Shown: piece by piece, positions 1-21,209 of the stretch
How the letters are laid out: each line of letters begins with the position of its first letter
Position numbering within the stretch: the stretch's first letter is position 1
From: a virus
Lineage: Duplodnaviria > Heunggongvirae > Uroviricota > Caudoviricetes
Strand: one strand, 5' to 3'
DNA length: 64,000 nucleotides
IMG/VR virus record: IMGVR_UViG_2851955134_000009
Program-made: the position numbers and the translations under genes
Notes under the pieces: model-generated
What the model was told of the DNA's origin: nothing
What the model saw: the letters and a program-made list of their open reading frames with translations, nothing else
The model's database searches: none

Positions 1-1374
1 CTTACCCGTGAGACGGTAGGTGGATACTTATGTGGTGTTTATAATGATGAGTTGTACAATGCACAACTTTCTTTAAGAGATGTTGAGACCGAACTAACAA
101 AGAAAGTTACTGAATTAAAAAGTATCTTTACTGTATTAGGTAGATCTGGACAGGCTCCAGATTTACAAGGTATTGATGAGAAAATAAAGCATCTAAATAA
201 ATTGAGAGCTATTGAGAATGTAAAACTAACAAATAGAGCTATTATAACTAATGAAGAAGGGGCTGATTCTGAAAAACGAATGGGTACTATCAGGGAGGAA
301 CTCAATGAAGCTAAAAGGAAATTATCTTCCCTAAAAGATAAAATCCAATCTTTGGATTTTGAAATTTCAGATTCTGATATGTTTATATCAGAATTAAATG
401 AGCGGCTAAAAAACTTAGAACAGTCTCGAGAAACGCGTGCTATATTTGATAGTATGAATTTTGATTTTTGCCCTAGTTGTCTTTCCAAAATAGATAAGGC
501 TCATAATGATCATGTTTGTCATCTATGTAAAGTGGAACAATTAGATGATAAAGCTGAAAATCAGTTATTAAGAATGAAAAATGAATTAACTCTTCAAATC
601 AAAGAATCTCTTCAATTAATGGATAGAAGAAAAGAAGAGTTGGTAAGATTAAAGCGAGATGTTCCTTTAGCTGAGAGTGAATTAAAAAGGCTTGAACAGG
701 ATTATTTCAAAGAGTCACACTATTGGTCTTCACCGCAAGAGTTAGCTGTAGGTAAAATATATAGGGAAATTGGACGGCTTGATGAAGAAATAAAAAGAGC
801 TTATGAAGATAAGAAGCTTATTGTTGTTATTAATGAACTTCAAGAGCGTCGCGATGAACTTCAGGCGGAAAAAAATAGACTTGATGATCTTATTGAACTT
901 TATGAAGAAAAAGAGGAAGTTCTTAAAGATAAAATTTATGCTTCAGTGAGCTCAATAGCACAAGAGCTTTTACAAGAAGATTTGCCTTTGCAAAAAGAGT
1001 TTATGTCTCCTGAAAGTGTGGAGTTTAGTTTTACTGATAATAGCGTTTATGTGAATGGTAGTAAGAACTTTTCTGAAAGTTCAGCTGTAGTATTAAGGCA
1101 TATATTCCATTTGGCACTACTTTCAGCAAGTATAGAGAACCACTCAATGCGACTTCCAAGATTTATGATGTTAGATGGGATCGACGATGGTGGAATGGAA
1201 AAAGAACGGAGTCACAATTTACAGGAAATAATAATTGATGAGTGCTCACGTTATGAACATGATTATCAGTTGATATTTGCAACATCTGAAATAAATCCCA
1301 AATACAGTGAGAGTGAATATATTGTTGGTGAGTATTATTCGCCAGATAATTATTCATTGAAAATAATTGAGTAA
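1..1374 (+). CDS. SMC/Rad50-like ABC ATPase, C-terminal part (5' end outside window); candidate defence cargo
   Basis: Frame 1 is open from base 1 with no stop before the listed ATG at 52. Long coiled-coil region, CxxC...CxxC pair (FCPSC...CHLC), then ABC C-lobe-like motifs (FSESS, RFMMLDGIDD, QLIFATSE). Strongly AT-rich compared with adjacent phage genes. Confidence 0.5.
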   Translation, partial: LTRETVGGYLCGVYNDELYNAQLSLRDVETELTKKVTELKSIFTVLGRSGQAPDLQGIDEKIKHLNKLRAIENVKLTNRAIITNEEGADSEKRMGTIREELNEAKRKLSSLKDKIQSLDFEISDSDMFISELNERLKNLEQSRETRAIFDSMNFDFCPSCLSKIDKAHNDHVCHLCKVEQLDDKAENQLLRMKNELTLQIKESLQLMDRRKEELVRLKRDVPLAESELKRLEQDYFKESHYWSSPQELAVGKIYREIGRLDEEIKRAYEDKKLIVVINELQERRDELQAEKNRLDDLIELYEEKEEVLKDKIYASVSSIAQELLQEDLPLQKEFMSPESVEFSFTDNSVYVNGSKNFSESSAVVLRHIFHLALLSASIENHSMRLPRFMMLDGIDDGGMEKERSHNLQEIIIDECSRYEHDYQLIFATSEINPKYSESEYIVGEYYSPDNYSLKIIE

Positions 1375-1377
1375 TTG

Positions 1378-1411
1378 TATATGTGGCTGCTATTTTTGTA
1401 GCCACATATAA
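1378..1411. terminator. hairpin between convergent genes, possible bidirectional terminator
   Basis: Inverted repeat tatatgtggct...agccacatata with an 11-nt loop, lying between the ATPase stop and the portal stop. Confidence 0.35.
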
Positions 1412-1439
1412 ATTACTGTCTGAACTTTATTGTTTTTGT

Positions 1440-2468
1440 TCAAAGTACGTATGGTCTAAACCTAATTATTTCTATTTCAAGCCAGTCGTTTAATTGATCA
1501 AATCTTTTCTGCATGGGCACCAATTCATTGCGCATAAATACCTTACTAGCCTTCTCCACATCCCCAAACCCCCCAACATTATTCGGCAAAATTCCCATCA
1601 TCTGAGGCGGTACGCGGTGTGCAGCCATCATGTCGTCCCGGCTCACGTTCTTGATGTTCAGAAATTCATCTTTCGCTGCGACTTCTGACAACGGGATAAT
1701 CTGAAGTCCGTCCTTTTTGCCGTTAGGCGAGTACATAAACAGATTGCGGAAGTTGCCTGGACCTTTGGCGCTTTTCATCGCGTTGCGGAGGTTGTTCACA
1801 TCCTCCTGATTCTGCGCGGCGTCGGTCATGTACATGATGAAGCCTGCATGACTACCGTTGATGTAATACTTACGGCGGAACAGCGTGGCGGATTCGTTGA
1901 GCAGGGCGGATGGAATGGCAGAAAGATAGCCGGGCAGGCCGTAGATCTCCTGGTTGATGTCCGGTTCCATCAGATGAAAAATGCTGCCTTTCGTGAACTG
2001 ATACGGCTGGGTTGTCATACCGTATTGCACAAACCAGTAGGTATCCAGGTCTAACCCGCGTCGGGTGTATTTTGCCAGCGCAGGCTCAAGGGCGATAACT
2101 TCACCGAATCGGTTCGTGCGTTTCTCCAGGTAGGCGTTACCAAATACCAGATAGTCCTGCACAAAACGCGAAAAAGCCTGTTGGCTGAGCAGCGGATGAG
2201 GGATATAGGTACTGGTCAGAATGTTGCACTTTACTGCAATCGGGGAACTGTGATGCACGGCAGCGCGGAAGGTGCGCGCCAGTCCGTCAAAGCTGACGGG
2301 AGGCTCATACCAGCGATCTGTCTGAACACATTCCACATAGTCCAGCAGTTCGCGGCGGTCAAGTACTGGAACGGGATCACCGAAGCTGAATGCTTCGGCT
2401 GAAGTCTGGTTTTTATGCTGGATCTGATTCGTCGCCGCAGCGCGGTTTTTCTTACTCTTTCCCATCAA
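1440..2468 (-). CDS. Q: phage portal protein (P2 gpQ-like)
   Basis: 342 aa, size and position as P2 Q, divergent from the O-N-M operon and adjacent to terminase P. The last ~15 codons are AT-rich. Confidence 0.85.
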   Translation of the reverse strand: MMGKSKKNRAAATNQIQHKNQTSAEAFSFGDPVPVLDRRELLDYVECVQTDRWYEPPVSFDGLARTFRAAVHHSSPIAVKCNILTSTYIPHPLLSQQAFSRFVQDYLVFGNAYLEKRTNRFGEVIALEPALAKYTRRGLDLDTYWFVQYGMTTQPYQFTKGSIFHLMEPDINQEIYGLPGYLSAIPSALLNESATLFRRKYYINGSHAGFIMYMTDAAQNQEDVNNLRNAMKSAKGPGNFRNLFMYSPNGKKDGLQIIPLSEVAAKDEFLNIKNVSRDDMMAAHRVPPQMMGILPNNVGGFGDVEKASKVFMRNELVPMQKRFDQLNDWLEIEIIRFRPYVL

Positions 2469-4231
2469 AAAATCTCCACAATATTGCTGGTATTGGCGGA
2501 CTCGCCCTGCAGCGGTTCGTTAAACAGTGCGTGCATTGTTGCCCAGGCCAGATCGGCGTGGCTGGCTTCTTCGCTGCGGCTGGCTTCATAGGTTGGGCGG
2601 TTGCCACTGGCGGTGGTGGCACGACGGATTGCCATGAATGACTGCGCAATGTCGGTGTGCCCGGCGTCAAACTCCAGACGGCGGTGGCTGATAATGTCGT
2701 AGGCCTTGAGTACCAGGGCATTTTTAACGTTGGGGTTGTAGACAAACTCCCGGACGGCAGGAAAGAACGCTTTCACGTTCTCGTAAACTCCGTGACCGAC
2801 ACCTGTCGAGTCGATACCGATATAGGTCACGTTGTACTGTTCGGTCAGTTTTTTGATGGCGTCAGCCTGGGCGCGGAAGTCCATCCCGCGCCACTGGTGA
2901 CGCTCAAGAATGCGAAACTTACCGCCTGGCACGGCTGGCGGTGCCACCACCACGCATCCGGCGCTGTCGCCGTTCTGCGTACCTTTTGCCGGGTCATAAC
3001 CGATCCACACTTCTCGCCAGCCAAACGGGCGCAGGGCCAGTGCATGAAAGTCGGTCCAGACTTCCCAACTGTCCACCATGCATGCCTGCAGCTCGCTGAG
3101 CGGAAATACGGACGCGAGATCGTCCACGAATTCACACATCAGCAGGTTCTGGTATTCGTCCGGGCTGTATTCCATGCGCAACTGGTCAAGGTCGAACAGG
3201 TTACAGCCGCCGCGCACCGCATCTTCCACGGTGACTATCTGGCGGTATTGCCCGTCTGCACACAGCAGGCCTGGAGCCAGATTGCTGTGGGACAGGTCGA
3301 TGTCCACCTTGTCGGCTTTATTGCGCCCACGGTTGAATAGCGCACCGGACCAGAACGGATAAGCACTGTGTGTCAGGCTGGATGGCGTGGAAAAATAGGT
3401 TTGTCGCCATTTTTTGTGAATAGCCATACCGGAAGCCACTTTGCGCAGCTCCTGGAATTTCGGTATCCAGAAATATTCATCCAGATACAGGTTGCCGTGG
3501 TAACTCTGGGCCGTGCGGGCATTGGTGCCGAGGAAATACAGTGTGGCCCCGTTGGGAAGCACCATCGGATCGCCTTTCAGCTCCACTTCCACTTCTTTGG
3601 CGAAGTCGATGATGTACTGCTTAAAGACGTGGGCCTGTGCCTTGCTGGCGGAAAGGAAAATCTGGTTACGTCCGGTAAGCAGAGCGTCAATCAGGGCTTC
3701 ACGGGCAAAGTAAAAGGTCGCGCCGATCTGGCGTGACTTCAGCAGGTTGCGGATGCGGTTGGTTTTTCCGGCTTCCCACCAGTGGCGCTGGTAGTTGAAC
3801 ATGGAGGAATGGAAAATTTCTTCCAGCTTCTCAATCTGTTCATCGGTGAAAACATTCTTTTCAGGCTGACGGCGTGGGCCTTTGTTGCGGTTGGCGACGT
3901 TAGGGTTTAAGTCGGCTTCGTTGCCGCCATTGTTAAACTTGCCGATCCGCGCGTGGCGCTCCGACTGGCGCGCCAGCAGGTCAATTTCTTTAAAGTCTTT
4001 CCCTTCTTTGTGCTCCTTCATAATGAGCTGGCAGTAGCGTGCGGCGGTAGTGAGCTGCATCTGATCCAGCGGCCCATAGTCACCCCACTTGTCGCGTTTT
4101 TTCCAGCTGTGAACGGTTGCAACTTTCTCGCCCAGCATTTCAGCAATGCGGGCGACGCGGTATCCCTGAAAGTACAGCAGCATGGCCTGCCGACGGGGAT
4201 CGAGATCTGCGGGTGTCAGTGTGGTGTTCAT
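2465..4231 (-). CDS. P: terminase large (ATPase) subunit (P2 gpP-like)
   Basis: 588 aa, overlaps the Q start by 4 nt, P2-type synteny. Confidence 0.85.
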   Translation of the reverse strand: MNTTLTPADLDPRRQAMLLYFQGYRVARIAEMLGEKVATVHSWKKRDKWGDYGPLDQMQLTTAARYCQLIMKEHKEGKDFKEIDLLARQSERHARIGKFNNGGNEADLNPNVANRNKGPRRQPEKNVFTDEQIEKLEEIFHSSMFNYQRHWWEAGKTNRIRNLLKSRQIGATFYFAREALIDALLTGRNQIFLSASKAQAHVFKQYIIDFAKEVEVELKGDPMVLPNGATLYFLGTNARTAQSYHGNLYLDEYFWIPKFQELRKVASGMAIHKKWRQTYFSTPSSLTHSAYPFWSGALFNRGRNKADKVDIDLSHSNLAPGLLCADGQYRQIVTVEDAVRGGCNLFDLDQLRMEYSPDEYQNLLMCEFVDDLASVFPLSELQACMVDSWEVWTDFHALALRPFGWREVWIGYDPAKGTQNGDSAGCVVVAPPAVPGGKFRILERHQWRGMDFRAQADAIKKLTEQYNVTYIGIDSTGVGHGVYENVKAFFPAVREFVYNPNVKNALVLKAYDIISHRRLEFDAGHTDIAQSFMAIRRATTASGNRPTYEASRSEEASHADLAWATMHALFNEPLQGESANTSNIVEIF

Positions 4232-6285: not shown

Positions 6286-6936
6286 ATGAACCTGAGTCCC
6301 GCACGGCAGCATCGCCTGCGCGTTCAGGCTGAACAGGCCGCCCGCGAGGGCGGCAGTGTTCGCCACGCGTCGGGCTATGACCTGATGTTGCTGCAACTGG
6401 CGGAAGATCGCCGCCGTCTCAAGGGCGTTCAGTCCACGGTCAAAAAAGCGGAAATCAAAGTGGAGCTGCTGCCGAAGTACGCCGCCTGGGCGGAGGGTGT
6501 CCTGGCTGCCGGAGGCACTCAACAGGATGACGTGCTGATGTACGTGATGCTGTGGCGCATTGATGCCGGAGATTATGCCGGGGCGCTGGAGATCGGGCGT
6601 CATGCCCTGCGTCATGGCTGGGTGATGCCGCTGGGTAACCGCAACGTGCAGACCGTGCTGGCAGAGGAAATGGCAGACGCAGCGCAGAGCGCAATGCTTG
6701 CCGCCACCGGCTTTGATGCCGATCTGTTACTGCAGACACTGGAACTAACAGACGGTCTGGATATGCCGGACCAGTCACGGGCGCGTCTGCATAAAGCGAT
6801 TGGCGCTGTCCTGAGTGAAAGCAATCCGGCTTCCGCCCTTAATCATCTCAACCATGCGTTACAGCTCGATCCCCGCTGTGGCGTGAAAAAAGACAAACAG
6901 CAGCTGGAGCGCAGACTGCGCAATGACAGCCGCTGA
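6286..6936 (+). CDS. M: terminase small/endonuclease subunit (P2 gpM-like)
   Basis: 216 aa, immediately after N as in P2. Confidence 0.7.
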   Translation: MNLSPARQHRLRVQAEQAAREGGSVRHASGYDLMLLQLAEDRRRLKGVQSTVKKAEIKVELLPKYAAWAEGVLAAGGTQQDDVLMYVMLWRIDAGDYAGALEIGRHALRHGWVMPLGNRNVQTVLAEEMADAAQSAMLAATGFDADLLLQTLELTDGLDMPDQSRARLHKAIGAVLSESNPASALNHLNHALQLDPRCGVKKDKQQLERRLRNDSR

Positions 6937-8839: not shown

Positions 8840-8918
8840 CGGTGATCTGAATGCGTTGCTGGATGAAACGGAGGCCGCCTGGGCGGTCTGTGCAGACAAA
8901 GTGGACATGATTATTTGA
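8682..8918 (+). CDS. lysC: o-spanin (Rz1/LysC-like), 3' end truncated by the Mu-like insertion
   Basis: Lipoprotein-like N-terminus (LLTLSGCG). The ORF stops at the TGA supplied by the first three bases of the inserted element. Joining the flanks restores 18 more codons (96 aa total) that overlap the R start. Confidence 0.65.
   Translation: MRTRIYATGLILLCLLTLSGCGNVRHSPEVQLTVSGCPRVTPCRLEQAAPRTNGDLNALLDETEAAWAVCADKVDMII
8910..8915. repeat. ATTATT direct repeat, left copy (putative target-site duplication)
   Basis: Identical hexamer directly abuts both termini of the Mu-like element (8910-8915 and 46511-46516). Confidence 0.6.
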
Positions 8919-8959
8919 TGCGCCGCGCGATAAATGCGCTCTATCTTGTGCGATAAATG
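8916..8959. repeat. Mu-like element terminal repeat, left-hand copy in window coordinates (putative transposase-binding sites)
   Basis: TGATGCGCCGCGCGATAAATG...GTGCGATAAATGG; matches the reverse complement of 46467-46510 at positions 1-4, 7, 9, 12, 14-21, 33-35 and 37-43. Confidence 0.55.
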
Positions 8960-8993
8960 GCATCCACGCGGCGTTTCATTATTTGAAAAAGAA

Positions 8994-9566
8994 TTACATT
9001 TCAGGTTCCGTTATGACAGTCCCAACAGGGTGATAGCGGTAGATCGTTGACAGTCCAATATCATAGATAATTGCCAGCCGCTTTCTGTCATACCCTTTCT
9101 GGAGCAATCTTGCGATCTGCTCATGCTGCTCCTTCGTCAGTTTCGGGCGACGTCCTCCAACTCTCCCTTGTGCTCGCGCAGCAGCCAGTCCTGCCAGCGT
9201 GCGCTCAACTATCAGTTCACGCTCCATTTCTGCCAGTGCACCCATCATATGAAAAAAGAACCTTCCCATCGGAGTGCTGGTATCGATTGAATCCGTCAGA
9301 CTGCGAAAATTGACACCTTTTGCGCGTAGCTCTTCTGTGAGAGCAATGAGGTGTTTCATTCTTCTACCCAACCGATCCAGCTTCCAGACCACCAATGTAT
9401 CCCCTCTTTTAAGGCACTTTAAAGCGCGTTTCAGGCCTGGTCGTTCCGACTTGGTTCCGCTCATTTTGTCCTCAAAAATCTGTTCACATCCTGCGCACAT
9501 TAATGCATTGCGTTGCAAATCTGTGTTTTGGTCATTTGTTGACACACGTATGTAGCCAATCAGCAT
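8994..9566 (-). CDS. serine DNA invertase (Gin/Pin/Hin family)
   Basis: 190 aa from MLIGYIRVSTNDQ...; catalytic-serine N-terminal domain and C-terminal HTH typical of invertases. Start placed at the internal Met because the longer track ORF overlaps the fibre segment. Confidence 0.85.
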   Translation of the reverse strand: MLIGYIRVSTNDQNTDLQRNALMCAGCEQIFEDKMSGTKSERPGLKRALKCLKRGDTLVVWKLDRLGRRMKHLIALTEELRAKGVNFRSLTDSIDTSTPMGRFFFHMMGALAEMERELIVERTLAGLAAARAQGRVGGRRPKLTKEQHEQIARLLQKGYDRKRLAIIYDIGLSTIYRYHPVGTVITEPEM

Positions 9567-9622
9567 TAAAAATACTCCCTTTTGAGTGGTTAAAGTACTG
9601 AGATAATGTGAGGAGGATTTGA

Positions 9623-9648
9623 GAGATAAACGTTGGTTTGGGGGAAGG
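9623..9648. other. invertase crossover site (hix/gix-like), Mu-like cassette, invertase-proximal
   Basis: gagataaacgttggtttgggggaagg; core AAACCAACGTTT is shared with the sites at 11224, 50937 and 52762, and is inverted relative to 11224. Confidence 0.5.
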
Positions 9649-10099
9649 CTCTGCATTGCCTGTTGGTGTACCGGTTCCATGGCCCACCGCCACACCGCCA
9701 GCAGGCTGGTTACAGTGCAACGGAGCTACGTTCACCAAAGAACAATATCCTGTTCTGGCCAGAGTCTACCCGACCCTCCGTCTTCCCGATTTGCGCGGTG
9801 AGTTTATCCGTGGATGGGACGGTGGTCGCAAGGTTGATACCGGGCGTGCGCTACTTTCATTTCAGGAAGGGACTATCGTATCCGGTTTTGATGATAATGA
9901 TACCGGAGATATCAGTTCGCTCGGCTCTACACAATACGGATTTGGTGACGCTTTAACCTCTAATCAACTGGGGGTCATAAATGGCAAAAAGTGGATATTT
10001 GATGCATCCTCTAAAGGTGCACAAAGATATGACTGGTGGGCTTATGTATCAGCTCGCCCCCGCAATATCGCATTTAACTATATCGTGAGGGCGGCGTGA
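9638..10099 (+). CDS. alternative tail-fibre C-terminal (tip) segment, promoterless inverted cassette
   Basis: Begins with GEGSALPVGVPVPWPTATPPAGW, the same junction peptide found inside the fibre gene at 10720-12489; opposite orientation; ends NIAFNYIVRAA. Confidence 0.6.
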   Translation: MGEGSALPVGVPVPWPTATPPAGWLQCNGATFTKEQYPVLARVYPTLRLPDLRGEFIRGWDGGRKVDTGRALLSFQEGTIVSGFDDNDTGDISSLGSTQYGFGDALTSNQLGVINGKKWIFDASSKGAQRYDWWAYVSARPRNIAFNYIVRAA

Positions 10100-10105
10100 T
10101 ACCGT

Positions 10106-10720
10106 TCAGCCGGCAAGCGCCAGTGGCGCTTCCGGCCAGCTGATTTCAGGTGCCTTGCTGATATCCAGTGCGTTCAGCTCGTCGATATAATCCAGCACGG
10201 CGTTCAGTTTTGCCGTTTCTTCTGGTTTCAGACTGCGACCTGCCCGCAGTTTGAGGTTGATGAGGTCGATGGACTTCATCGCCTGATCCACCCGTTCCTG
10301 GCGTTGCAGTCTGGCAACCTCCAGCTCTGCGGCTCGCTGCCGTTCAGTATCGGTTACCCACGCCTCACCGTTCCAGGTATCCCATGGCGTGGCCGGCTGT
10401 TTTGTGGTGGTGTCCGCCGGGTAATCACCCGGCTGGGTAATCTGAACGGGAGTACCGTTCTCCGTGCTGTATACCGTCTCGCCGCGGTGATCAGGCACAT
10501 GTTCCCACCCGTTCAGCGTGGCAGTCCGGCAAACCACGTAACCCGAAATTGCCTCCGGCGGTGCATCGGCGCACGAATGTGCCGGAGTACCCACCCCAAG
10601 GGCGAGATACTCCACAGAGGATGAGGTGTATTCCCGGGTTTCCTCGTCATAGTGATATACAGTGATATCGCCCGCTACAGTGGCGATACCGTTTTCATCC
10701 AGAACTGCAGTGTTACTCAT
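10106..10720 (-). CDS. tail fibre assembly protein (chaperone)
   Basis: 204 aa immediately downstream of the fibre gene; homologous to the 200-aa protein at 51671-52273. Confidence 0.75.
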   Translation of the reverse strand: MSNTAVLDENGIATVAGDITVYHYDEETREYTSSSVEYLALGVGTPAHSCADAPPEAISGYVVCRTATLNGWEHVPDHRGETVYSTENGTPVQITQPGDYPADTTTKQPATPWDTWNGEAWVTDTERQRAAELEVARLQRQERVDQAMKSIDLINLKLRAGRSLKPEETAKLNAVLDYIDELNALDISKAPEISWPEAPLALAG

Positions 10721-12489
10721 TAAACTGCCCTCACAATGTAATTAAGTGCAATGCTACGGGGTCTGACAGTGATACCCTTCGCATACCCGCTTCTGATAGA
10801 GGTCAGAATAGTAGCCTGCATACCATTGTCTGACATTGCCACGACAGGATCGCTGAATGTTGTCCCGTCCGGCATTTTAAAGCTGCCCTCACGAAGGTCT
10901 GTAATGGAATCTTCATTGTTGAATCCCATGCCGACTATCCCCGAGGTTCCCGTAGTGTCCTGGTTATAATAATCCAGCATTGCTGTTCTTAACAGCGTTG
11001 CCCCTTGTGCGGACAGCAACTTACGTCCTGTATCAACTTTGCGCCCGTCGTCCCATCCACGGATAAACTCACCGCGCAAATCGGGAAGACGGAGGGTCGG
11101 GTAGGCTCTGGCCAGAACAGGATATTGTTCTTTTGTAAAGGCGCGCCCGTCGCACTTTAACCAGCCTGCTGGCGGTGTGGCGGTGGGCCACGGAACAGGC
11201 ACACCAACGGGTAGCGCCGAGCCTTCTCCTAAACCAAGGTAATTGAGGACATCTTTTATACTGCCCTTAGCGATAATAGCGCGACCAATAGCTGTAAGGG
11301 TTGCCAGCGCTGCGCGGTCTGCTCCGGTAAAATAAGGCAACCGATCTGCTGCAGTGGCAAGTCCTGCCAGAGCAGTGAGCGTGGCATCTGCCGGTTGTTT
11401 TCCGTTTGCCAGATCGTATGCAGCCTTGACCGCTTTCGGTGTGGCGGCCAGTATTTCAGACGTGCTGTTGATGGCACTGCTCAGTTGTACGGTGCCTTTT
11501 GCCGTCAGCGAGGCCGCAGGCACTCCCGTTATCTGACTCCACGGGTGAGTGTGGCTGGCAGGCGCCTTGCCGGCTGCCAGGTCGTATGCAGCCTTGACCG
11601 CTTTCGGTGTGGCGGCCAGCGTTTCAGACGTGCTGTTGATGGCACTGCTCAGTTGTACGATCCCTTTACGGGTCGTTGTTGCATCCTGGGCTGTGTATTT
11701 TCCCCGGGCCAGATCATACGCGATTTTCACAGCCTTCGGCGTGGCAGCCTCAGTTTCTGATTGACTGTCCGTGGCGCTGCTCAGTTGTACGGTGCCTTTT
11801 GCCGTCAGTGAAGCCGCAGGCACTCCCGTTATCTGACTCCACGGGTGAGTGTGGCTGGCAGGCGCCTTGCCGGCTGCCAGGTCGTATGCAGCCTTGACCG
11901 CTTTCGGTGTGGCGGCCAGCGTTTCAGACGTGCTGTTGATGGCACTGCTCAGTTGTACGATCCCTTTACGGGTCGTTGTTGCATCCTGGGCTGTGTATTT
12001 TCCCCGGGCCAGATCATACGCGATTTTCACAGCCTTCGGCGTGGCAGCCTCAGTTTCTGATTGACTGTCCGTGGCGCTGCTCAGTTGTACGGTGCCTTTT
12101 GCCGTCAGTGAAGCCGCAGGCACTCCCGTTATCTGACTCCACGGGTGAGTGTGGCTGGCAGGCGCCTTGCCGGCTGCCAGGTCGTATGCAGCCTTGACCG
12201 CTTTTGGTGTGGCGGCCAGCGTTTCAGAGGTGCTGTTGGTGGCACTGCTCAGTTGGGTGAACCCCTTAGCTGTCAGTGTCGCGTCCGGGTGGTTACGGGA
12301 ACGTACGTGTTCAGCCAGTGACTGTGCGGCTTCCTCCGTTTTCTTCTTCAGCCATTTCGTCCTGTTTGCCAGTTGCCGGGGGGCTCGATTTGATATCCCG
12401 TCTGCACCACCCAGAACCGGATCTGATGTCTCCAGTTGATAGATATTTTCTTCCCACTTTTCTGTTTCATTCAGGTTTCCCATAATCAA
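10720..12489 (-). CDS. tail fibre protein with internal tandem repeats
   Basis: 589 aa; Ala/Thr-rich repeats of about 100 aa; C-terminal tip segment begins at the crossover junction (LGLGEGSALPVGVPVPWP). Confidence 0.8.
   Translation of the reverse strand: MIMGNLNETEKWEENIYQLETSDPVLGGADGISNRAPRQLANRTKWLKKKTEEAAQSLAEHVRSRNHPDATLTAKGFTQLSSATNSTSETLAATPKAVKAAYDLAAGKAPASHTHPWSQITGVPAASLTAKGTVQLSSATDSQSETEAATPKAVKIAYDLARGKYTAQDATTTRKGIVQLSSAINSTSETLAATPKAVKAAYDLAAGKAPASHTHPWSQITGVPAASLTAKGTVQLSSATDSQSETEAATPKAVKIAYDLARGKYTAQDATTTRKGIVQLSSAINSTSETLAATPKAVKAAYDLAAGKAPASHTHPWSQITGVPAASLTAKGTVQLSSAINSTSEILAATPKAVKAAYDLANGKQPADATLTALAGLATAADRLPYFTGADRAALATLTAIGRAIIAKGSIKDVLNYLGLGEGSALPVGVPVPWPTATPPAGWLKCDGRAFTKEQYPVLARAYPTLRLPDLRGEFIRGWDDGRKVDTGRKLLSAQGATLLRTAMLDYYNQDTTGTSGIVGMGFNNEDSITDLREGSFKMPDGTTFSDPVVAMSDNGMQATILTSIRSGYAKGITVRPRSIALNYIVRAV
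11224..11249. other. invertase crossover site (hix/gix-like) inside the Mu-like fibre gene
   Basis: ttctcctaaaccaaggtaattgagga, at the constant/variable junction of the fibre protein. Confidence 0.5.
11521..12120. repeat. two identical 300-bp tandem copies within the tail-fibre gene (diverged partial copies flank)
   Basis: Sequence from 11521 onward is identical to that from 11821 onward; a third, diverged copy starts at 12121; in frame (100 aa per unit). Confidence 0.8.
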
Positions 12490-13076
12490 CTGCTCCCGTG
12501 GTTATAACTGCCATCATGGATGGCGGTATTGTTATAGCGAATGGCCACAGACTGATACTCCAGGCTGGCCAGATGGCAGCGGGCCGGTGCAAATGCAGCC
12601 AGCGTCTGACGCAGCATCGCGGCCTGATCGTTAGTAATGGGCTGTTTCAGAATAACGCGATAAACTGCCCAGGCGGCTGCATCTCCATGAACAAACAGTC
12701 CGTTATAGCTGCGATTGCCGTCGTAACTGAGACGACCTGTGCCTTCAATCAGATCCACTTCACCAAAGCCAAAACGGCGGATAACTTCCCGGATTGACCA
12801 CGGCGTCCCTTTATACCGGTGCAGTTCGATGGCTGCTTTTATAAGCATGCGGCGAACATCGTCCGATTCCGCCAGCTCCCAGCCATCGCCAGACAGTGAG
12901 AACTGCTCGCCCAGCCATGGCAGCGCGGAACTGTCGACGATATCGACGAGAAAGACCATCAGTACGCTCAGGTCGATGTTATCCAGCCGTCCTGCCAGTC
13001 TTCCCAGCGTCCTGAGACTGATATCACCCTCAAGCGGTGGCGGGAGTTGTAATGGCTCAGTCATCAGACACTCCAC
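12486..13076 (-). CDS. baseplate protein (P2 gpI-like)
   Basis: 196 aa between baseplate J and the tail fibre gene, as in P2-type baseplate modules. Confidence 0.65.
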   Translation of the reverse strand: MECLMTEPLQLPPPLEGDISLRTLGRLAGRLDNIDLSVLMVFLVDIVDSSALPWLGEQFSLSGDGWELAESDDVRRMLIKAAIELHRYKGTPWSIREVIRRFGFGEVDLIEGTGRLSYDGNRSYNGLFVHGDAAAWAVYRVILKQPITNDQAAMLRQTLAAFAPARCHLASLEYQSVAIRYNNTAIHDGSYNHGSS

Positions 13077-14160
13077 TCATGTTAAGAGTGATTGCCGTAC
13101 AGTTTGCCCATTCGTTTTCTGCCACCACCCGCAGTGCCGGTGTCACCAGTTCAACCTGGTACACCCCGGAAACGGACAATGCACTGATAATCTGGCTGGG
13201 GACAATATCACGCCCCAGCGTGGCGGCACGTGATGCCACCCAGTTCTGTATGGCGCTGTTAGCGGCATCTTTTACAGACCTGGCATCCTGATCACGATAG
13301 ATCGTAATCCTGGCTTCAATGGTGTAATCCACCTTCACTGGTGTTTTAGCCCGCACTGTATCAGTGAGTGGCCTGACTTTCTCATCAGAGCAGAAACTCT
13401 CTACCAGCGTGAGAACACCGCCGTCCGGCAGACCGGTACTGAGCAGCGGATACAGATCTACGGTCCCGGGAACCGGGGAAAGCACAGCAACATCGACAAT
13501 GTTGGGATGGGCCTGCATGGCATGAAAGCGGTATGCGCCACGGCTTCCGGCATTGGTGAATGACTCCGGGGCCAGCCTGATACGCTCCCGGAGCCTGTCA
13601 TCGTCTTCCTGTTCTGAACCGCCGGAACTGGCCGTCAGATTGCTCACCAGCAGGTCGACGTTATCAATCTCATCGAGTAACTGACTGACCTGCGCAGGTT
13701 GCCAGCCGTTACCAGCGGTACCGGGTTCGGTACAGGTGGACGTGACATTGACCAGCAGCAATCCGGCCTTCAGTACCACATCTGTATCGGTGGCAAAAAT
13801 AACGCTGTCGGAAGCGCTGACGCGGGTGCCTGCCGGGATCAGCACATCAATGGCCAGTGCCTCATCTACGGAGAACTGGAGCGTGGTGGTGGCAGGCTGC
13901 GCGGCAAGACGGTATACACCGACCAGTTCACCGAGGTAATCAATCATCGGCTCACGGGCAAAGGCGACCAGATTCTGCTTTGCTGCCTCCTGTACCGCAA
14001 CCCTGACCAGCATTTCGCGATAGGCCCACAGATCAATCAGCAGACGTTCTGCCTGTGCCGGGTACAGCGTTTTGCCGGTATCCGCTTCATACTTCGCAAT
14101 CATTTCTGCCGTGATTTTGTCGGCATCGCGTTCAATAAAATCGGGTTCTGTCAGCGCCAT
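13057..14160 (-). CDS. baseplate protein J-like
   Basis: 367 aa, position between gpW-like and gpI-like genes. Confidence 0.75.
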   Translation of the reverse strand: MALTEPDFIERDADKITAEMIAKYEADTGKTLYPAQAERLLIDLWAYREMLVRVAVQEAAKQNLVAFAREPMIDYLGELVGVYRLAAQPATTTLQFSVDEALAIDVLIPAGTRVSASDSVIFATDTDVVLKAGLLLVNVTSTCTEPGTAGNGWQPAQVSQLLDEIDNVDLLVSNLTASSGGSEQEDDDRLRERIRLAPESFTNAGSRGAYRFHAMQAHPNIVDVAVLSPVPGTVDLYPLLSTGLPDGGVLTLVESFCSDEKVRPLTDTVRAKTPVKVDYTIEARITIYRDQDARSVKDAANSAIQNWVASRAATLGRDIVPSQIISALSVSGVYQVELVTPALRVVAENEWANCTAITLNMSGVSDD

Positions 14161-14498
14161 AGCAGCTCCTGAGTCCGGGTCTGTCCGTCTGAGCCTTTCC
14201 AGCTCACCCGGAGCGTAAGATGTTCGCCGTCGACGGCGGGTTTAACTGACATAAGCTGGCAGCGGGGCTCCCAGCGCCGGATGGCATCGACGGATTCGCG
14301 CACCACATGCGGAATGGCCCGGTCTACAGGCCAGTCGATATAAAGATGCAGATTGCTGCCGAACTCCGGGCGATGCGGGTCGCTGCCGCGGGGAGTCCGC
14401 AGGATAATTTGAATCGCCTGCCGGATATCATCCAGCCCCCGGACAATTTCGCCGGGAGCCTGCAGGGCTGGTTGCCAGAATACTGAGGTCGTTTTCAT
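14151..14498 (-). CDS. baseplate wedge protein (gpW/gp25-like)
   Basis: 115 aa, conserved position before J. Confidence 0.7.
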   Translation of the reverse strand: MKTTSVFWQPALQAPGEIVRGLDDIRQAIQIILRTPRGSDPHRPEFGSNLHLYIDWPVDRAIPHVVRESVDAIRRWEPRCQLMSVKPAVDGEHLTLRVSWKGSDGQTRTQELLWR

Positions 14499-14552
14499 GG
14501 GGGCAGTATTGCCCCCGTGCGGGAACGCTGATATTAAAGGCGTTTAAGAAGC

Positions 14553-15149
14553 TCAGTGGGAGTGGTGGCTGGAGTTTTCGCCATCAGACAGCATACTGCC
14601 CGTGGCATGGGCATTCCCTTTAATCTCGATATTGCCATGGATGGTCGCGGTAACACCTTTACCACCAGAACCCGCCATGCCTCCTTCGTAAATCAGCTTT
14701 CCCCTGACACGCAGATCTCCGGTAAGTTCGGTTTCCGGTGCGTCAATCGTGGCTTTCTGTGTTTTCAATACCACATCAGCACCACACTCAATGACAATAT
14801 GCTCAATGCCGCCCCGGATGGTCAGAGTGTGCGTCTTCCGGTTGTAGCTGTACTCTGCACCATCAGCAAACCGGGTTCCCCGGATATTTTTGTCACTGAA
14901 CGGTGGTTTATCGACGTCTGAATACACCGCGCCCAGAATAACACCATCCTCGCCGTTGGCATCGAGCAGCACCTCAACCTGCTCCCCCACGTCAGGGAGC
15001 CAGTAATCTTTGTTATCCTGGGTATTGCGCTGCAGCACGTTAAGCCAGTTTGTGCGCAGGTTATCGCATTCAGGCAGACGAACGCGGGCCTGAACCCTGT
15101 CGGCATCAACGGCACTGACCGTACCGACCTGACGAGTGACACCAGTCAT
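14553..15149 (-). CDS. baseplate assembly/spike protein (gpV-like)
   Basis: 198 aa, position preceding gpW-like gene. Confidence 0.7.
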   Translation of the reverse strand: MTGVTRQVGTVSAVDADRVQARVRLPECDNLRTNWLNVLQRNTQDNKDYWLPDVGEQVEVLLDANGEDGVILGAVYSDVDKPPFSDKNIRGTRFADGAEYSYNRKTHTLTIRGGIEHIVIECGADVVLKTQKATIDAPETELTGDLRVRGKLIYEGGMAGSGGKGVTATIHGNIEIKGNAHATGSMLSDGENSSHHSH

Positions 15150-16300
15150 TTTTTCTTCTCCTTAATCACCGTCGATGTACTGCCATCCGGGTGATAAACC
15201 GTGAGTTTCTGAGTTTTTTGTTTTTTCCCTCTTGTGACTGGCCCCCGTGCCACTTCCAGCTCTGTGGTGTAGCCGCTGTTACGGTCAAACGCATGGCGGG
15301 CAGTGGTTATGAGCCATGGCCCGGATAACTGCCCAAAACCCACCAGTTCAATTTTGTTGCCTGCTGTCAGTTGAGGTGTTCCCGTCAGCGTCAGGGAGCC
15401 GTTCTGCTGGTATTCGTTATGTCTGGCCAGTGCTGAATCCGCTTTAATCCGGGCACTGTCCGGGTCGCTGACGCGGCTGTTAACTTTAAGTGAGTCAGCG
15501 CTGGTAACCTTACCACCTTTGAGCTTTTTGTCGCTTTCACGGGTACCACCATCAGCTTCGTAGACGATCAGTTTTTTACTGCTGCTTTTCTGGTGTTTTA
15601 CCTTTGCAGATTTATAGACCCGGTTGATGGTGTCACGCAGGGAAAAGCGGGCCACATCCTGCGGTTTTAACTGCCTGACCGGCTCCTGACTGCGCAGTGT
15701 GGCCAGATGAGAAAAAATCAGCTGGTCACTGACCACTTTCACTGCATAACCATACTCGCTGGCCAGCCGGCGCAGAAAACCCACGTCGGTTTCAGCATAC
15801 TGGGTCACCCGGTCGATTCTGATGGACTCAATGCTGCCCACCAGTTTCAGTCGGTGCTTTCTGGCAATCCGCCCCGCAACAGCTGCCAGCGTGGTGTTCT
15901 CAAAACCACGACTGGTTTTAGTCCGCAGAGCACTGTTAACCGAGGTGGCCACCCCACGGATAGAAACAACGGAAGCGGGCGAACTCACTTCGATCTCGTC
16001 TATAGAGAACGTACCGCAGGACAGCAGCTTCTCGCCCTGATAGCCCATTTTCAGCGTCAGCGTGTCACCCTTGCCCGGATACCACTTATCCAGCCAGCGG
16101 CCATCGGTGTCGTCCAGCTCCACCTCAATGGTATCGGACTCATTTTTGATGTTATCGCTCCAGGTCACACGGGTGACATAAGGCGCGATATCAGAGGTGA
16201 TGTTTTTCTGCAGATACCACAGAGTGAACACCGGTGTCAGCACATCGCTGACGCTGGTTAACGCTGATGTGACTTGCGCAGTGCTGTTTATCTCAGCCAT
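15146..16300 (-). CDS. tail protein D-like
   Basis: 384 aa following the X-like and U-like genes, as in P2 T-U-D order. Confidence 0.7.
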   Translation of the reverse strand: MAEINSTAQVTSALTSVSDVLTPVFTLWYLQKNITSDIAPYVTRVTWSDNIKNESDTIEVELDDTDGRWLDKWYPGKGDTLTLKMGYQGEKLLSCGTFSIDEIEVSSPASVVSIRGVATSVNSALRTKTSRGFENTTLAAVAGRIARKHRLKLVGSIESIRIDRVTQYAETDVGFLRRLASEYGYAVKVVSDQLIFSHLATLRSQEPVRQLKPQDVARFSLRDTINRVYKSAKVKHQKSSSKKLIVYEADGGTRESDKKLKGGKVTSADSLKVNSRVSDPDSARIKADSALARHNEYQQNGSLTLTGTPQLTAGNKIELVGFGQLSGPWLITTARHAFDRNSGYTTELEVARGPVTRGKKQKTQKLTVYHPDGSTSTVIKEKKK

Positions 16301-16503
16301 GGGGCAATATCCTCTTCTGTACGGGCTTCTTCAGCCTCAATCACCGGGATCAGTAACAACAGCCCGGAGGGCAGCACCGGCGTGATGGCCACGTGCGGAT
16401 TGGCGGCAATAATCCGGGGATAGCCCAGCGGGTCACCGTAGTACTGCCATGCCAGCGAATCCCAGCGCTCTCCGTCACGGGTAACATGTTCAAGAAACAT
16501 CAC
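16288..16503 (-). CDS. tail protein X-like (LysM-like small tail protein)
   Basis: 71 aa between the U-like and D-like genes. Confidence 0.55.
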   Translation of the reverse strand: MMFLEHVTRDGERWDSLAWQYYGDPLGYPRIIAANPHVAITPVLPSGLLLLIPVIEAEEARTEEDIAPWLR

Positions 16504-17384
16504 ACACTCCTCGTCAGTATTCTGGCGGCCATTGCACTTAATCCCGGAGACATGCGGTTGAATGCTGTGCTGGCGGCGTTAAGCTGCCCGGAAACGGTAT
16601 CCAGAGCACCTGCAATATTTCTTTTGTCCACACCACTCAGCGCAGACTGTGCCTGCTGTACATACGTGGCTGCTTCGCTGGCTGTTCTGGCCAGACTGAT
16701 GGCATCGGGCATGGATTCAGAGAGTGCGTTAAACGCCGGAACACTTTTCCCCAGAGCCCCGGAGATATTACCCAGTCCGCTCATCAGCCCCGGCACACGG
16801 GTCAGTGCGACAACGGGGTTATCCTTCATTTTCTGTGTCACCCGAACGGCGCTGATAGTGGTCTGGAGTACAGACTGCGCCTGTTTCGCATAGTTGACGC
16901 CGTTGCGGATGAACTGCGCCACCCCTGAAGGTGAAGGAATGGCACCGGAGACCGCCCCGACACCCGGGAGCTTCGTGCGTATTGCCGGTGGTTGCAGAGG
17001 ATTTTTCGGATCACCGGTGTATTCCCGGAGAGACACGGTGGCACTGACAGCCAGCACGTTACCGGTGCTGTCTGTCTGCTCGCTGGTTGCGGTCACATCG
17101 GTAATCACGAACCAGCCACGATAGTCACCGTTGCCGAAGACCAGCGCCAGTGCCTGATGGGCTTTCATGGTTGTTCGCAGTCTCGCCAGCTCCACATCGG
17201 GTGCACAATAATGCTGATGGAAGACCAGACTTATCTGGATTTCGTCCAGCCTGTCGCCGACGAACTGCAGGCCAGGCTTACCCCCGATGCGGGCATGCTC
17301 CGCATAATCGACGCCGAACGTGGCCTCGAAGCCGTCCCAGTAGGTAATCAGATCAAACTCAATATCACCCAGTACGGCAAACAT
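16500..17384 (-). CDS. tail protein with gpU-like N-terminal domain and Ala/Ser-rich extension
   Basis: N-terminus MFAVLGDIEFDL resembles the P2-like U protein in this window (MMMVLGLYVFML); follows the tape measure gene. Confidence 0.55.
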   Translation of the reverse strand: MFAVLGDIEFDLITYWDGFEATFGVDYAEHARIGGKPGLQFVGDRLDEIQISLVFHQHYCAPDVELARLRTTMKAHQALALVFGNGDYRGWFVITDVTATSEQTDSTGNVLAVSATVSLREYTGDPKNPLQPPAIRTKLPGVGAVSGAIPSPSGVAQFIRNGVNYAKQAQSVLQTTISAVRVTQKMKDNPVVALTRVPGLMSGLGNISGALGKSVPAFNALSESMPDAISLARTASEAATYVQQAQSALSGVDKRNIAGALDTVSGQLNAASTAFNRMSPGLSAMAARILTRSV

Positions 17385-20335
17385 CAGCGGTACTCCTTAC
17401 GTTGTTTCTGAGCCAGCAGACGCTCCAGCATTTTTTCCAGCTCATGCAGACTCATATTCAGGGCACCAGTCAGTCCTGCAGGCGCTGTGGTTTCCCTGCC
17501 ATTGAGGAAAAACTGAGGATTAAAGCTGACCTGGATACCACCAGACGTTCCACCGCCGGTTGCAGCTGCACCACGGCCTGAATATCCGGCAGCCAGGATT
17601 TCAGGCGAGGGGATACGGGGAACATCCGGTGTCATCTCATTTGCCAGACGTTGACCTGGTAAAGTCGATGCCCGGGTGGAGATCGGAATAGCGGGCATGG
17701 AAGACAAACTATTGATTACGGATCCGATCGCATTTTTAGCAGACGACATAAACCCGTTGATATCGGGCAACGGCATACTGAAGCGAACACCTGAAGTGTT
17801 ATCCCGTATTTCTGGCCCCTGAATGCTCACGGGCATTCTGGGGAGCAGTTCACTGGCCATTCGCTGCCCGGCCAGAGCTGCAATCGGAGTGCTCCGCTGC
17901 AGGCCAATGGCGGCCCCCTGCGCGATATTGTCACCAAAGCCCATAAACACGCGGCTCGGCGAATGAATACCCAGCTTTTCACTGAACCAGCCACTGATGC
18001 TGTCACCCATTCCGGTTACACTGGATTTGAGCGACTCCCATTTGTTTTTGATACCGTTAATCAGACCGTCGACAAGATGGCCACCGAAGTCGGTGAACTT
18101 TGCCGGCAGATCAACACCAAGATATTTCAGCGCAGCTGCAAAGGCTTTATAGAGCAGACCTGCCGGCGACCAGTTAATCAGCAGCTTACCAGTTCCCGCG
18201 ATACCGCCGTTAAAGGCCTCCTGAATGTCAGACCAGCACTGTTTAAACCAGCTACTGATGCTGTCACCCATTCCGGTTACACTGGATTTGAGCGACCCCC
18301 ATTTGTTTTTGATACCGTTAATCAGACCGTCGACAAGATGGCCACCGAAGTCGGTGAACTTTGCCGGCAGAGCAACGCCGAAATATTTCAGCGCAGCCGC
18401 AAAGGCTTTATAGAGCAGCCCTGCCGGCGACCAGTTAATCAGCAGCTTACCAGTTCCCGCGATACCGCCGTTAAAGGCTTCCTGAATGTCAGCCCAGCGC
18501 TGTTTAAACCAGCCACTGACTGTCCCCCAGTTGCGGTAGATAAGGTAAGCTGCTGCCGCGACAGCGGTGATAACGAGACCGATGGGATTCATCATCAGCG
18601 CTCGCCCAATCCAGAGAACGGCACGTGCAGCGCTCATAAAACCGCGAACGAGGCTGCCCGCCAGAACTTTGCTGAGTTTCAGTCCTCCGCTGGTCAGTCG
18701 GCTAAATCCAGTGACAAGCCAGCGTAATTTGCCACCTTCTCCTAGTGCGGTAGTCAGTCGATGCCAGTTGGTCCGGAGTAAAACAGCAGTTTTCCAGACG
18801 TTCACAAAGGGGGAAATAAGGAGATTCAGCCCCAGTTTGAGACCAACAGTCGCTATCTTAATCGCAAGGAGCGCACTGATGAGCTTAAAAGCCCCACTGA
18901 CAAATTGCGGGTGAGTCGCCACCCAGTGTTTTGCCCCCTGAATGAGTGGGATCAGCTCCTGAGTCAGAGAAATAAAAGAGGGGGCGAGCTGATCGCCCAG
19001 CGTAATAGCCAGATCGCGACTGCTGACCATAAGCGCTTTAGTGGCTTCAAGGGGAGATTTCAGCCGCTGATCGTAAGCACTGGCAAGCAAATCGTTATCC
19101 GCAGCCCTGAGAGCACCGGCACGGATCTCGCGATATCTGTCCATGTTGGCCAGCATCGGGCGGATAAATGCCATGACCTGCATATCCGCGAACATATCGC
19201 CCAGACCAAAGTTTTTCGCCAGAGCCTGAAGTGCCTCATCTCTTGCCGTATCATTCTTTATTTTCATGGCGGATTTGAAGCCGGCCAGCGCTTCGGGGCT
19301 TTTGGCATTGAGGTAACGTTCTATAACACTCAACATCCCTTCAATCGGAGAGATCCCCGCAGCCTTATAACTCGCAACAGAACCCTGCAAATCAATACCC
19401 AGATCAGCAAACTGTTTCTGAGTATCGCGGGCAAAAATTTTGGTAAGAAAGTTTTTAAAATTATTGGCTGCTTCGTCGGTGGAGCCCGCACCGATTTTTG
19501 CTATCTGGAGACTGGCCCCGATTTCAGCAACAGCCTCTTTTCCACTGGCAATACCCGCCATCATTGGGGCCAGGGACTGCATCCACTTGACCTGATCCGG
19601 GATTTCAAATGACCCCTGGTCACCGGCATAAGCCATAATATTCTGGACGGCACTAAAATCTCTGGCCGCACCTTTCAGGGAGTTTTGCCAGACTGCGGCC
19701 ACTTTTGCCCAGTCCTGAGATGACGTGCGTGTTGCCGTTGCCGCGCGGGCAATATCCGGCATCAGAAAACCGATATCTGACAAGTTATCAATATTGTCGC
19801 TGATGAGCGAACCCACCGCCTCCTGCAGTTCATCCTGATACTGATTGTATTTTTGCGCCCAGCCTTTTATCTGTCCGGCAAGTGCATCCCGCGTTTTATT
19901 GTCATATTTTGCGGTGATCGACATATCAATCATTTTGTCCTGAAAAGACATGGACTGCTGAACGGCAGGGGAAACCGTATGATAAACAGTCTGTGCCATG
20001 CCATACGCTTCAATCCCCTGACCATACAGCGCCATGCGGTTAGCTTTCAGCGCATCACTGGTGGCTGATGCCGCTGACAGACGGCGCTGCTGGCGCTCAA
20101 TTTGCTCCATGGTGCGGCTTACCCGCAGCAGCTCGCTGTTGAGATGCTGCATCCGGGAAGAGCCCAGTTGACCATAACGTTCTGTTGCACGGGTTAAAGC
20201 GTTCTGACGTTCCTGCAGGCGGCGTGAGGTATCGCTCAGGGAATCAAGCGCACGGCGGGTACCGCTCATTGCAGAACGGAATGTGCTGCCAATCATCCCG
20301 CCGATAACAACGCCGACTGAAAACTGTCCCGACAT
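17384..20335 (-). CDS. tail tape measure protein
   Basis: 983 aa, largest tail gene, located after the chaperone pair; contains an internal tandem duplication. Confidence 0.8.
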   Translation of the reverse strand: MSGQFSVGVVIGGMIGSTFRSAMSGTRRALDSLSDTSRRLQERQNALTRATERYGQLGSSRMQHLNSELLRVSRTMEQIERQQRRLSAASATSDALKANRMALYGQGIEAYGMAQTVYHTVSPAVQQSMSFQDKMIDMSITAKYDNKTRDALAGQIKGWAQKYNQYQDELQEAVGSLISDNIDNLSDIGFLMPDIARAATATRTSSQDWAKVAAVWQNSLKGAARDFSAVQNIMAYAGDQGSFEIPDQVKWMQSLAPMMAGIASGKEAVAEIGASLQIAKIGAGSTDEAANNFKNFLTKIFARDTQKQFADLGIDLQGSVASYKAAGISPIEGMLSVIERYLNAKSPEALAGFKSAMKIKNDTARDEALQALAKNFGLGDMFADMQVMAFIRPMLANMDRYREIRAGALRAADNDLLASAYDQRLKSPLEATKALMVSSRDLAITLGDQLAPSFISLTQELIPLIQGAKHWVATHPQFVSGAFKLISALLAIKIATVGLKLGLNLLISPFVNVWKTAVLLRTNWHRLTTALGEGGKLRWLVTGFSRLTSGGLKLSKVLAGSLVRGFMSAARAVLWIGRALMMNPIGLVITAVAAAAYLIYRNWGTVSGWFKQRWADIQEAFNGGIAGTGKLLINWSPAGLLYKAFAAALKYFGVALPAKFTDFGGHLVDGLINGIKNKWGSLKSSVTGMGDSISSWFKQCWSDIQEAFNGGIAGTGKLLINWSPAGLLYKAFAAALKYLGVDLPAKFTDFGGHLVDGLINGIKNKWESLKSSVTGMGDSISGWFSEKLGIHSPSRVFMGFGDNIAQGAAIGLQRSTPIAALAGQRMASELLPRMPVSIQGPEIRDNTSGVRFSMPLPDINGFMSSAKNAIGSVINSLSSMPAIPISTRASTLPGQRLANEMTPDVPRIPSPEILAAGYSGRGAAATGGGTSGGIQVSFNPQFFLNGRETTAPAGLTGALNMSLHELEKMLERLLAQKQRKEYR
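17985..18506. repeat. tandem duplication of about 261 bp inside the tape measure gene
   Basis: ctgatgctgtcacccattccggttacactggatttgagcga... occurs at 17994 and again at 18255; the encoded 87-aa units are near-identical. Confidence 0.6.
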
Positions 20336-20492
20336 AGTGGTTAACCTCCGGGGAAGGTGAAAAGACGTGAGGGGATAACGCAGAACAGCCGCTACTGGCG
20401 GCTGTCTGTACTATGATTTGTCGCCGTACTCGCTTTTTATTTGCTCTTCAGCCTGCTCCAGCCACATCTCCAGATCGTCAGTATCGAGGGCA

Positions 20493-20828
20493 TCAATCTC
20501 CCCCGGCTGAAACCGGAACCATCTCGCCAGCAGCCCCTGCGCCTGCGTCAGCGCCTTTGTCGCTCTCACCCATCCCCGTGATGAGCTGAAATCGTTTCTG
20601 TAACTGCAGGTAATCAGCCAGATCCATATTGTCGAGATCTTCCGGGAGAAGACCAGTACTGCGGGCAATCAGCGGTTCGTCCCAGTCTGCCGGGTTTTTG
20701 CTGATTTTGCGCACCTGCTTCAGGTCTTTTACCGTCAGGCGTTTCAGTTCAACCAGCTCAATTCTGGTGCCTGCAGCAGTGGTGAAGGGATAAGACAATT
20801 TAAAAGTATCGGATGGGGTCTGTGACAT
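20493..20828 (-). CDS. tail assembly chaperone (gpE-like)
   Basis: 111 aa directly upstream of the tape measure gene; an overlapping ORF (20411-20668) in another frame could be the frameshift extension. Confidence 0.55.
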   Translation of the reverse strand: MSQTPSDTFKLSYPFTTAAGTRIELVELKRLTVKDLKQVRKISKNPADWDEPLIARSTGLLPEDLDNMDLADYLQLQKRFQLITGMGESDKGADAGAGAAGEMVPVSAGGD

Positions 20829-20925
20829 GATTGTGCTCCTGTGTAAGTTCAGGGCAGTATGTCGGGAGAAGCGCGTGACGGATATTAAAGGAGATTAAGA
20901 AGAAGGGGCCGGAGCCCCTGTGATG

Positions 20926-21207: not shown

Positions 21208-21209
21208 CG

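Follow-up and report, generated by a model that had tools for sequence, protein, structure and literature searches.

Bacteriophages P2 and 186 and the prophage described here have a homologous cos core and a homologous order of genes around it (A ... cos ... Q-P / O-N-M-L); in P2 and 186, the portal gene Q is close to the packaging site. In the P2 record, cosL occupies positions 1-19 and the Q stop lies at 187, 168 bp away. The corresponding distance in the 186 record, between cos (1-19) and the portal stop (196), is 177 bp. The functional limits of the P2 site are given as a "55-bp core" in the passages of PMC5694545 and PMC9594776 that quote them. The two phages have ~80 bp of mutual similarity on the Q side of cos, a feature that is absent from the Elveevirus-type group discussed below. 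In P2, the terminator tQ (160-181) adjoins the Q stop, and its counterpart in 186, tW, is a terminator-type hairpin located just past the portal stop. The cargo genes old and tin of P2 are found on the opposite flank, the A side of cos.

Foreign DNA can be accommodated on the Q side as well. According to the passages of PMC5694545 concerned with the left arm, the interval between cosL and the gpQ homologue is a hotspot for foreign genes, as exemplified by ctx of phiCTX and by ORFs of phiRSY1 and phiRSX; for this hotspot, Nakayama 1999 and Dodd & Egan 1996 are cited there. The cos-adjacent region between gpA and gpQ of E. coli P2-like prophages is likewise presented as a defense hotspot in the relevant parts of Rousset 2022 (PMC9122126) and of PMC13586616. 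AT-rich foreign genes that vary among otherwise syntenic prophages, situated between cos and the portal gene, contributing anti-phage defense and leaving phage functions untouched, are features that this hotspot shares with the locus described here, and we see no essential difference between the two.

The closest phage records to this locus, at ~93% identity, are those of Klebsiella phage 4LV2017 and Escherichia phage Cartapus (Peduoviridae, Elveevirus), the latter a prophage of E. coli LF82. Both have the order cos-cargo-Q. Positions 1-59 of the Cartapus record are annotated as "putative cos site, homologous to the cos of P2" and are followed by a gene for a DUF4145 protein and then by the portal gene, such that cos and Q are 0.8 kb apart. 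In 4LV2017, the cargo consists of a hypothetical protein and a reverse transcriptase, and the distance is 2.1 kb. Encapsidated Cartapus DNA has been detected by virome sequencing and qPCR, with no virions seen in EM (PMC9928086), and the presence of this DNA indicates that the cos-cargo-Q layout is compatible with packaging.

The stretch of DNA analyzed here, referred to below as the window, is 64,000 nucleotides long and begins inside a cargo gene that ends with a TAA stop at 1372-1374 (plus strand, from the ORF list). Facing this gene on the minus strand is Q, the homologue of P2 gpQ (1440..2468; Pfam Phage_portal on an identical protein), with 93% DNA identity to the portal genes of 4LV2017 and Cartapus, and behind it P, the gene for the large terminase (2465..4231, minus strand; Terminase_5/6N/6C on an identical protein, together with the annotations in relatives). 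As a pair, Q and P are ~93% identical to the DNA of these two phages. The plus-strand late genes O, N, M, L, X, holin, and lysozyme lie beyond P. Of these, M (6286..6936), encoding the small terminase/endonuclease subunit, was recognized through Phage_term_smal in the related prophages L003 and L009-L018. Judged by these similarities, the products of M and P would be the enzyme that cuts cos. The other late genes of the P2-like prophage (R, S, V, W, J, I, H, sheath, tube, T, U, D, and ogr) occupy 46511..60698 on the plus strand, the last of them being ogr (60447-60698). Downstream of ogr are host genes that, from a comparison of their translations with E. coli K-12, we take to be ybjL (60934-62619, minus strand), ybjM, and grxA. 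A late region that ends with ogr beside these genes points to an intact right prophage end and to E. coli as the host.

An earlier note on this DNA had drawn attention to the lack of a recognizable P2/186-type cos at 1375-1500, between the cargo gene and the portal gene. This is correct, and it extends to the entire 64-kb window on both strands. The P2/186 consensus GGCGNGGCGGGGAAAGCA returned 0 matches in the whole window, on both strands, when up to three mismatches were allowed. Because the cos of the Elveevirus-type group differs from that consensus at exactly 3 positions, a site of this kind would have shown up in the search. Two group-specific cos patterns also gave 0 matches on either strand of the window, and so did the 48-nt cos core when as many as 10 substitutions were tolerated. 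If a P2/186-type cos is recognized by its GC-rich 19-nt cohesive-end sequence, GGCG(A/T)GGCGGGGA..., then none is present in the flagged interval or elsewhere in the window, and one is present in the sequence that adjoins it, as represented by the contig L025. The premise of the earlier note, that cos is to be expected within ~150 bp of the Q stop as in P2, is right for P2 and 186, but not for their Elveevirus-type relatives. A rule derived from P2 and 186, that cos lies within ~150-200 bp of Q, is unsuited to Elveevirus-type prophages because 0.8-3.5 kb of defense cargo sits between cos and Q there.

The sequence upstream of the window was reached by way of its ATPase fragment: this was searched, the members of the best cluster were listed, and the contigs of two identical members were fetched. 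L025, a 13,499-bp contig from the Logan assembly of SRR3996249, has 0 mismatches to window positions 1-9709. The identity extends across the junction between P2-like and Mu-like DNA at window 8915/8916, a junction absent from all 5,426 complete E. coli genomes searched. Position 3791 of L025 is the equivalent of window base 1, and the contig reaches 3,790 bp farther upstream. Within this additional sequence, at 1889-1936, is a perfect 48-nt cos core, AAAACCACTACATAAAGCGGGCAGGCGTGGCGGGGATACGAGCGCGCG, the end of which is 1,855 bp upstream of window base 1. Measured from window base 1, the 19-nt sequence GGCGTGGCGGGGATACGAG is 1,861-1,879 bp upstream, and its distance to the Q stop is 3,300 bp. 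A cos at the same offset is present in all eight of the other prophages with the same cassette (L003, L019, L020, L021, and L026-L029). We therefore predict that the cos of the window's prophage lies ~1.9 kb before the window start, with cohesive ends as given by this 19-nt sequence; the location is read on L025, a contig identical over 9.7 kb, rather than on the source record.

The assignment of this core as cos was examined by aligning it with the P2 and 186 database records, a comparison that the earlier note had proposed for the interval beside Q and for the DNA upstream. The interval proved negative. The upstream core aligned with the annotated cohesive-end region, the ends of both phages having been defined by experiment, at 41/57 identities for P2 and 44/57 for 186; within the cohesive end itself, the values were 14/19 and 15/19, respectively. 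Cartapus has the 48-nt core without any change, and 4LV2017 departs from it at 2 positions. Promoter-like hexamers immediately after cos in L025 are no commoner than in shuffled sequences, and so no promoter is claimed at this position.

Taken as a whole, the data are best explained by an intact cos situated across an acquired Lamassu/ABC-3C cassette that fills the cos-to-portal hotspot, a reading to which we assign a probability of about 93%. It agrees with one of three possibilities raised in the earlier note, that cos lies upstream of the cargo and outside the window, for L025, which shares 9,709 bp with the window without a mismatch, carries the perfect core in the adjacent upstream sequence, the outcome that the earlier note had named as overturning its finding. 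A second possibility was that acquisition of the cargo had removed cos and left the prophage unpackageable for want of a packaging site. The window, being wholly without cos, is as such a deletion would leave it, and inactivation of cos does occur in the lineage: in L012 (GCA_045583225.1), an IS10 at 2977-4360 lies within the 19-nt cohesive-end sequence, flanked by a 9-bp duplication, GGCGTGGCG. However, the perfect core of L025 is only 1.86 kb upstream of sequence identical to the window, cos is kept in 9 of the 9 same-cassette prophages that were fetched, and the order cos-cargo-Q is the norm in the Elveevirus-type group. We regard loss of cos with the arrival of the cargo as extremely improbable.

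The third possibility, that the prophage is truncated at the cargo gene and survives as a remnant with late genes only, draws on the fact that the window starts inside that gene, with nothing upstream visible there. Comparison with the longer contigs speaks strongly against it. L025 goes on to a 141-aa ORF, DinI, and a 62-aa ORF and reaches the end of gene A. L026 and L027, which match the window up to base 8915 (with 0 mismatches and 3 differing positions, respectively), run on upstream into gene A, a methylase, Cox/CII-type genes, and the CI repressor. Truncation at this point can hardly be credited, and an intact cos beyond the cassette remains the reading followed below. The same arrangement is seen in L003 (contig LGNE01000150.1), a prophage with an identical portal protein and 9 differences from the window in the first 8.6 kb. 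Its order is A, a 62-aa ORF, DinI, a 141-aa ORF on the opposite strand, and cos; past cos come a 60-aa ORF, a 188-aa CTD9 protein, a 166-aa MC5 protein, a 634-aa ATPase, and Q.

In the Elveevirus-type group, then, the lack of a cos beside the portal gene does not signify a defective prophage, and what might have been taken as a warning sign is a false alarm. A missing cos near Q is the ordinary result of a hotspot architecture that was already known.

The cargo gene with which the window opens (1..1374, plus strand) comprises the 3' 457 of the 634 codons of an SMC/Rad50-type ABC ATPase resembling LmuB, as identified with PADLOC and Pfam. The first 177 lmuB codons and two or three upstream cassette genes are outside the window. 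The fragment is 100% identical to the C terminus of the proteins P0132 and P0125. The full-length ATPase matches the PADLOC LmuB models over nearly the full length (E = 4e-43 to 5e-38), the Pfam families AAA_23, AAA_15, and SMC_N are found on the full-length sister protein, and the LmuB-like ATPase has a coiled coil and a CxxC...CxxC hook. The 166-aa protein belongs to Pfam MC5 (ABC-three component system middle component 5; E = 1.6e-57) and has a weak PADLOC match to LmuC (E = 8.7e-4). The 188-aa protein carries the CTD9 domain of ABC-3C systems at residues 74-185 (E = 2.1e-30); it has no PADLOC match, and no effector domain was recognizable in it with PADLOC and Pfam.

Both the SMC-like ABC ATPase and the LmuC/middle component that characterize Lamassu/ABC-3C are thus present. 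The similarity to Lamassu (LmuA/B/C) and ABC-3C resides in the SMC-like LmuB, the MC5/LmuC-like middle component, and a third protein bearing a CTD; the difference is that the CTD9 protein here is just 188 aa long and has no recognizable effector domain. The GC content of the cargo is 33%, as against ~55% in the phage genes. On the basis of its sequence, the cargo gene is the last gene, lmuB-like, of a horizontally acquired cassette of ~3.2 kb of the Lamassu/ABC-3C type, with a predicted function in defense. The proposed order within the cassette would be the 60-aa ORF, the CTD9 protein, the MC5/LmuC-like protein, and the LmuB-like ATPase. Ahead of the CTD9 gene (L025 2017-2779), the 60-aa ORF encodes a hydrophobic stretch and then NGNTVTNGSIVGRDQTN. 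The CTD9 protein begins in a similar way, with GNRVRNGSIVGGSQTN, and the pair may represent a split or duplicated N-terminal module.

An exact 35-mer of the cargo gene had no match among GTDB species-representative genomes, and a window-specific 35-mer had none in IMG/VR. Three complete E. coli strains contain the cassette at 99.7% identity; none of these copies is identical, and none is accompanied by the Mu-like junction.

To place the cassette among other occupants of the locus, a comparative set was assembled from an exact look-up of the capsid protein, yielding ten prophages with other cargo (L009-L018). The look-up also returned thousands of unrelated carriers, none with the window's cassette. 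The ten prophages with identical capsids have 10 different gene sets between DinI and Q, among them a methylase with a NotI-like enzyme, a reverse transcriptase with an ATPase, a 585-aa reverse transcriptase, a Cap4 nuclease, GmrSD, AAA_21, a Hypoth_Ymh protein (Pfam PF09509), and STM3845 with a reverse transcriptase. In nine of the ten, the cos core is 1.3-3.5 kb from the Q stop. The tenth is L012, in which an IS1 lies near the IS10; this prophage, distinct from that of the window, is a natural knock-out of cos. The locus is accordingly delimited by cos and by the portal gene, its content is variable, and the genes within it are of foreign GC content and defense type, as expected of a hotspot. 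Cargo differs between its named occupants also: a DUF4145 protein in Cartapus, a hypothetical protein and a reverse transcriptase in 4LV2017, and Lamassu/ABC-3C in the window. In comparison with P2, the window's prophage has its main cargo (3.3 kb) between cos and Q, and the A side of cos has a smaller variable gene.

The overall gene order that we propose for this prophage would be A, DinI, the small variable gene, cos, the cassette, a hairpin, Q (convergent with the cassette), and P. If cos is cut in the pattern known from P2 and 186, the cassette would come to lie right behind the left cohesive end of the mature linear genome.

The hotspot has sharp borders on both sides. On the left, the 19-nt cohesive-end sequence is followed in 14 of 14 loci by CGCGCG(C/T) and then by complete divergence, which puts the border 6-7 bp beyond the cohesive end in every locus of the comparison. 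On the right, DNA homology among 9 loci with different cargo starts at approximately window position 1547, inside Q, and megablast matches of the window to its relatives begin at 1464-1525, also inside Q. The last ~35 codons of Q (1440..1546, minus strand) are AT-rich and cassette-specific, with a GC content of 34.6%, as against 52.5% in the other part of Q. The encoded C terminus is homologous, yet its peptide is identical only among prophages with the same cassette. A border ~100 nt inside Q implies that each cassette brings its own last ~35 Q codons, and it is of note that the border falls within an essential gene. Neither a left border 6-7 bp past the cohesive end nor a right border inside Q appears in those parts of PMC5694545 and PMC9122126 on which we have drawn.

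One way in which cassettes might be exchanged, other than by ordinary site-independent recombination, is for the terminase-cut left end of linear phage DNA to prime end-initiated recombination with a relative already resident, the exchange being resolved inside Q. We put this forward as speculation, and consider it on balance unlikely to be the explanation. Were end-primed swapping to operate, the first kilobases behind the left cohesive end would constitute a dedicated exchange unit.

The A side of cos also varies among same-cassette prophages (L003 14690-15115, L021 6077-6949, and L019 6475-8367), where a 141-aa ORF, a DUF6236 protein, or a 630-aa KAP NTPase is encoded. With the A side variable as well, cos is flanked by two independent variable slots.

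Between the stops of the cargo gene and Q is a spacer of 65 bp (1375-1439) with a GC content of 29% and no cos; it is the right-hand end of the acquired cassette. The earlier note had described 66 AT-rich base pairs containing a hairpin, and both the AT richness and the hairpin are borne out, with the length to be amended to 65 bp. The hairpin is a strong stem-loop at 1372-1415, between the convergent lmuB and Q genes, with a core stem formed by 1378-1390 and 1398-1410. When folding energies were compared with those of shuffled sequences, the plus strand gave -23.5 kcal/mol against -8.6 +/- 2.4 in the shuffles (z = -6.3), with 0 of 200 shuffles folding as well, and the minus strand gave -18.0 kcal/mol (z = -5.5). 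The other cassettes each have a hairpin of their own between the last cassette gene and the Q stop, and the stem-loop of the window is in a position equivalent to that of tQ, adjoining the Q stop of P2 at 187.

A simple terminator scan did not call the hairpin at 1372-1415 because there is no U-tract directly 3' of the stem, and an Rfam search of 1250-1600 identified no family for it. In view of these two results, the term canonical intrinsic terminator is not claimed for this structure. Its position and stability nonetheless suggest that it ends or stabilizes the lmuB and P-Q transcripts, and it is probably either a two-way terminator or a stabilizer of the 3' ends of these convergent transcripts.

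The P2-like late region is interrupted by a transposable Mu-like prophage of 37,595 bp (8916..46510), inserted between lysC and R, which are contiguous in sister prophages. The insert has TG...CA ends and is bordered by a 6-bp target duplication, ATTATT, at 8910-8915 and 46511-46516. Pfam matches within it include Portal_Mu, Mu Gp27, Mu Gam, GemA, an rve transposase, and an AAA_22 MuB-like ATPase, and it further encodes sheath, baseplate, and tail fiber genes and a Gin-like invertase. This element, likewise with TG...CA ends, is also located in tnaB of E. coli LH10-b-1, where the duplicated bases are GTTATC, and in other strains its neighbors are other genes. The Mu-type genes, the TG...CA ends, the duplications, and the differing sites identify the insert as a transposable Mu-like prophage. 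L026 represents the same P2-like prophage, with 0 mismatches to base 8915, without the insertion.

The consequences for the P2-like prophage are considerable. The o-spanin gene lysC (8724-8918) is cut from 82 to 64 aa, the TGA that ends it coming from the first bases of the insert. The likely start codon of R, a GTG at 46536, follows the insertion by ~20 bp, and R, S, and the genes downstream of them are parted from the upstream portion of the operon. With the insert, the distance from cos to cos would be roughly 70 kb or more. A P2-type capsid holds ~33 kb, and the P2 record is 33,593 bp long.

It is therefore likely that the prophage possesses cos and yet is non-packageable because of a 37.6-kb insertion, a situation compatible with the intact cos favored above. 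The insert at 8916-46510 with its target duplication, the shortened LysC and split late operon, and a cos-to-cos length of ~70 kb or more, set against a capsid for ~33 kb, all point this way; on the other side, the Mu-like element could, in principle, be lost through recombination with an intact copy. As far as the sequence allows it to be judged, it is probably the insertion, and not cos, that makes this prophage non-packageable. An assessment of whether the window's prophage can produce virions should accordingly examine the Mu-like insertion in the late operon rather than cos. Both the nested prophage and the sharp borders of the hotspot are side observations, and the verdict on cos is unchanged by either.

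Two serine-invertase genes are present in the window, one in the Mu-like element (8994-9695, minus strand) and the other in the P2-like prophage (52837-53409, plus strand), and both adjoin genes for tail fibers and tail-fiber assembly. The similarity between these two loci probably explains why the short-read contig L025 breaks at window position 9709.

The Mu-like element itself is organized differently from Mu, in which nearly all genes run in one direction. Here, the late genes, from terminase to the tail fibers and gin-like invertase, are on the minus strand and extend from 31.2 kb down to 9.0 kb, and the early genes are on the plus strand (transposase, 38605-40374; MuB-like, 40358-41551; gam; and gemA). 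The two blocks diverge from ~34 kb, each reading towards one end of the element, a layout that presumably resembles that of phage B3.
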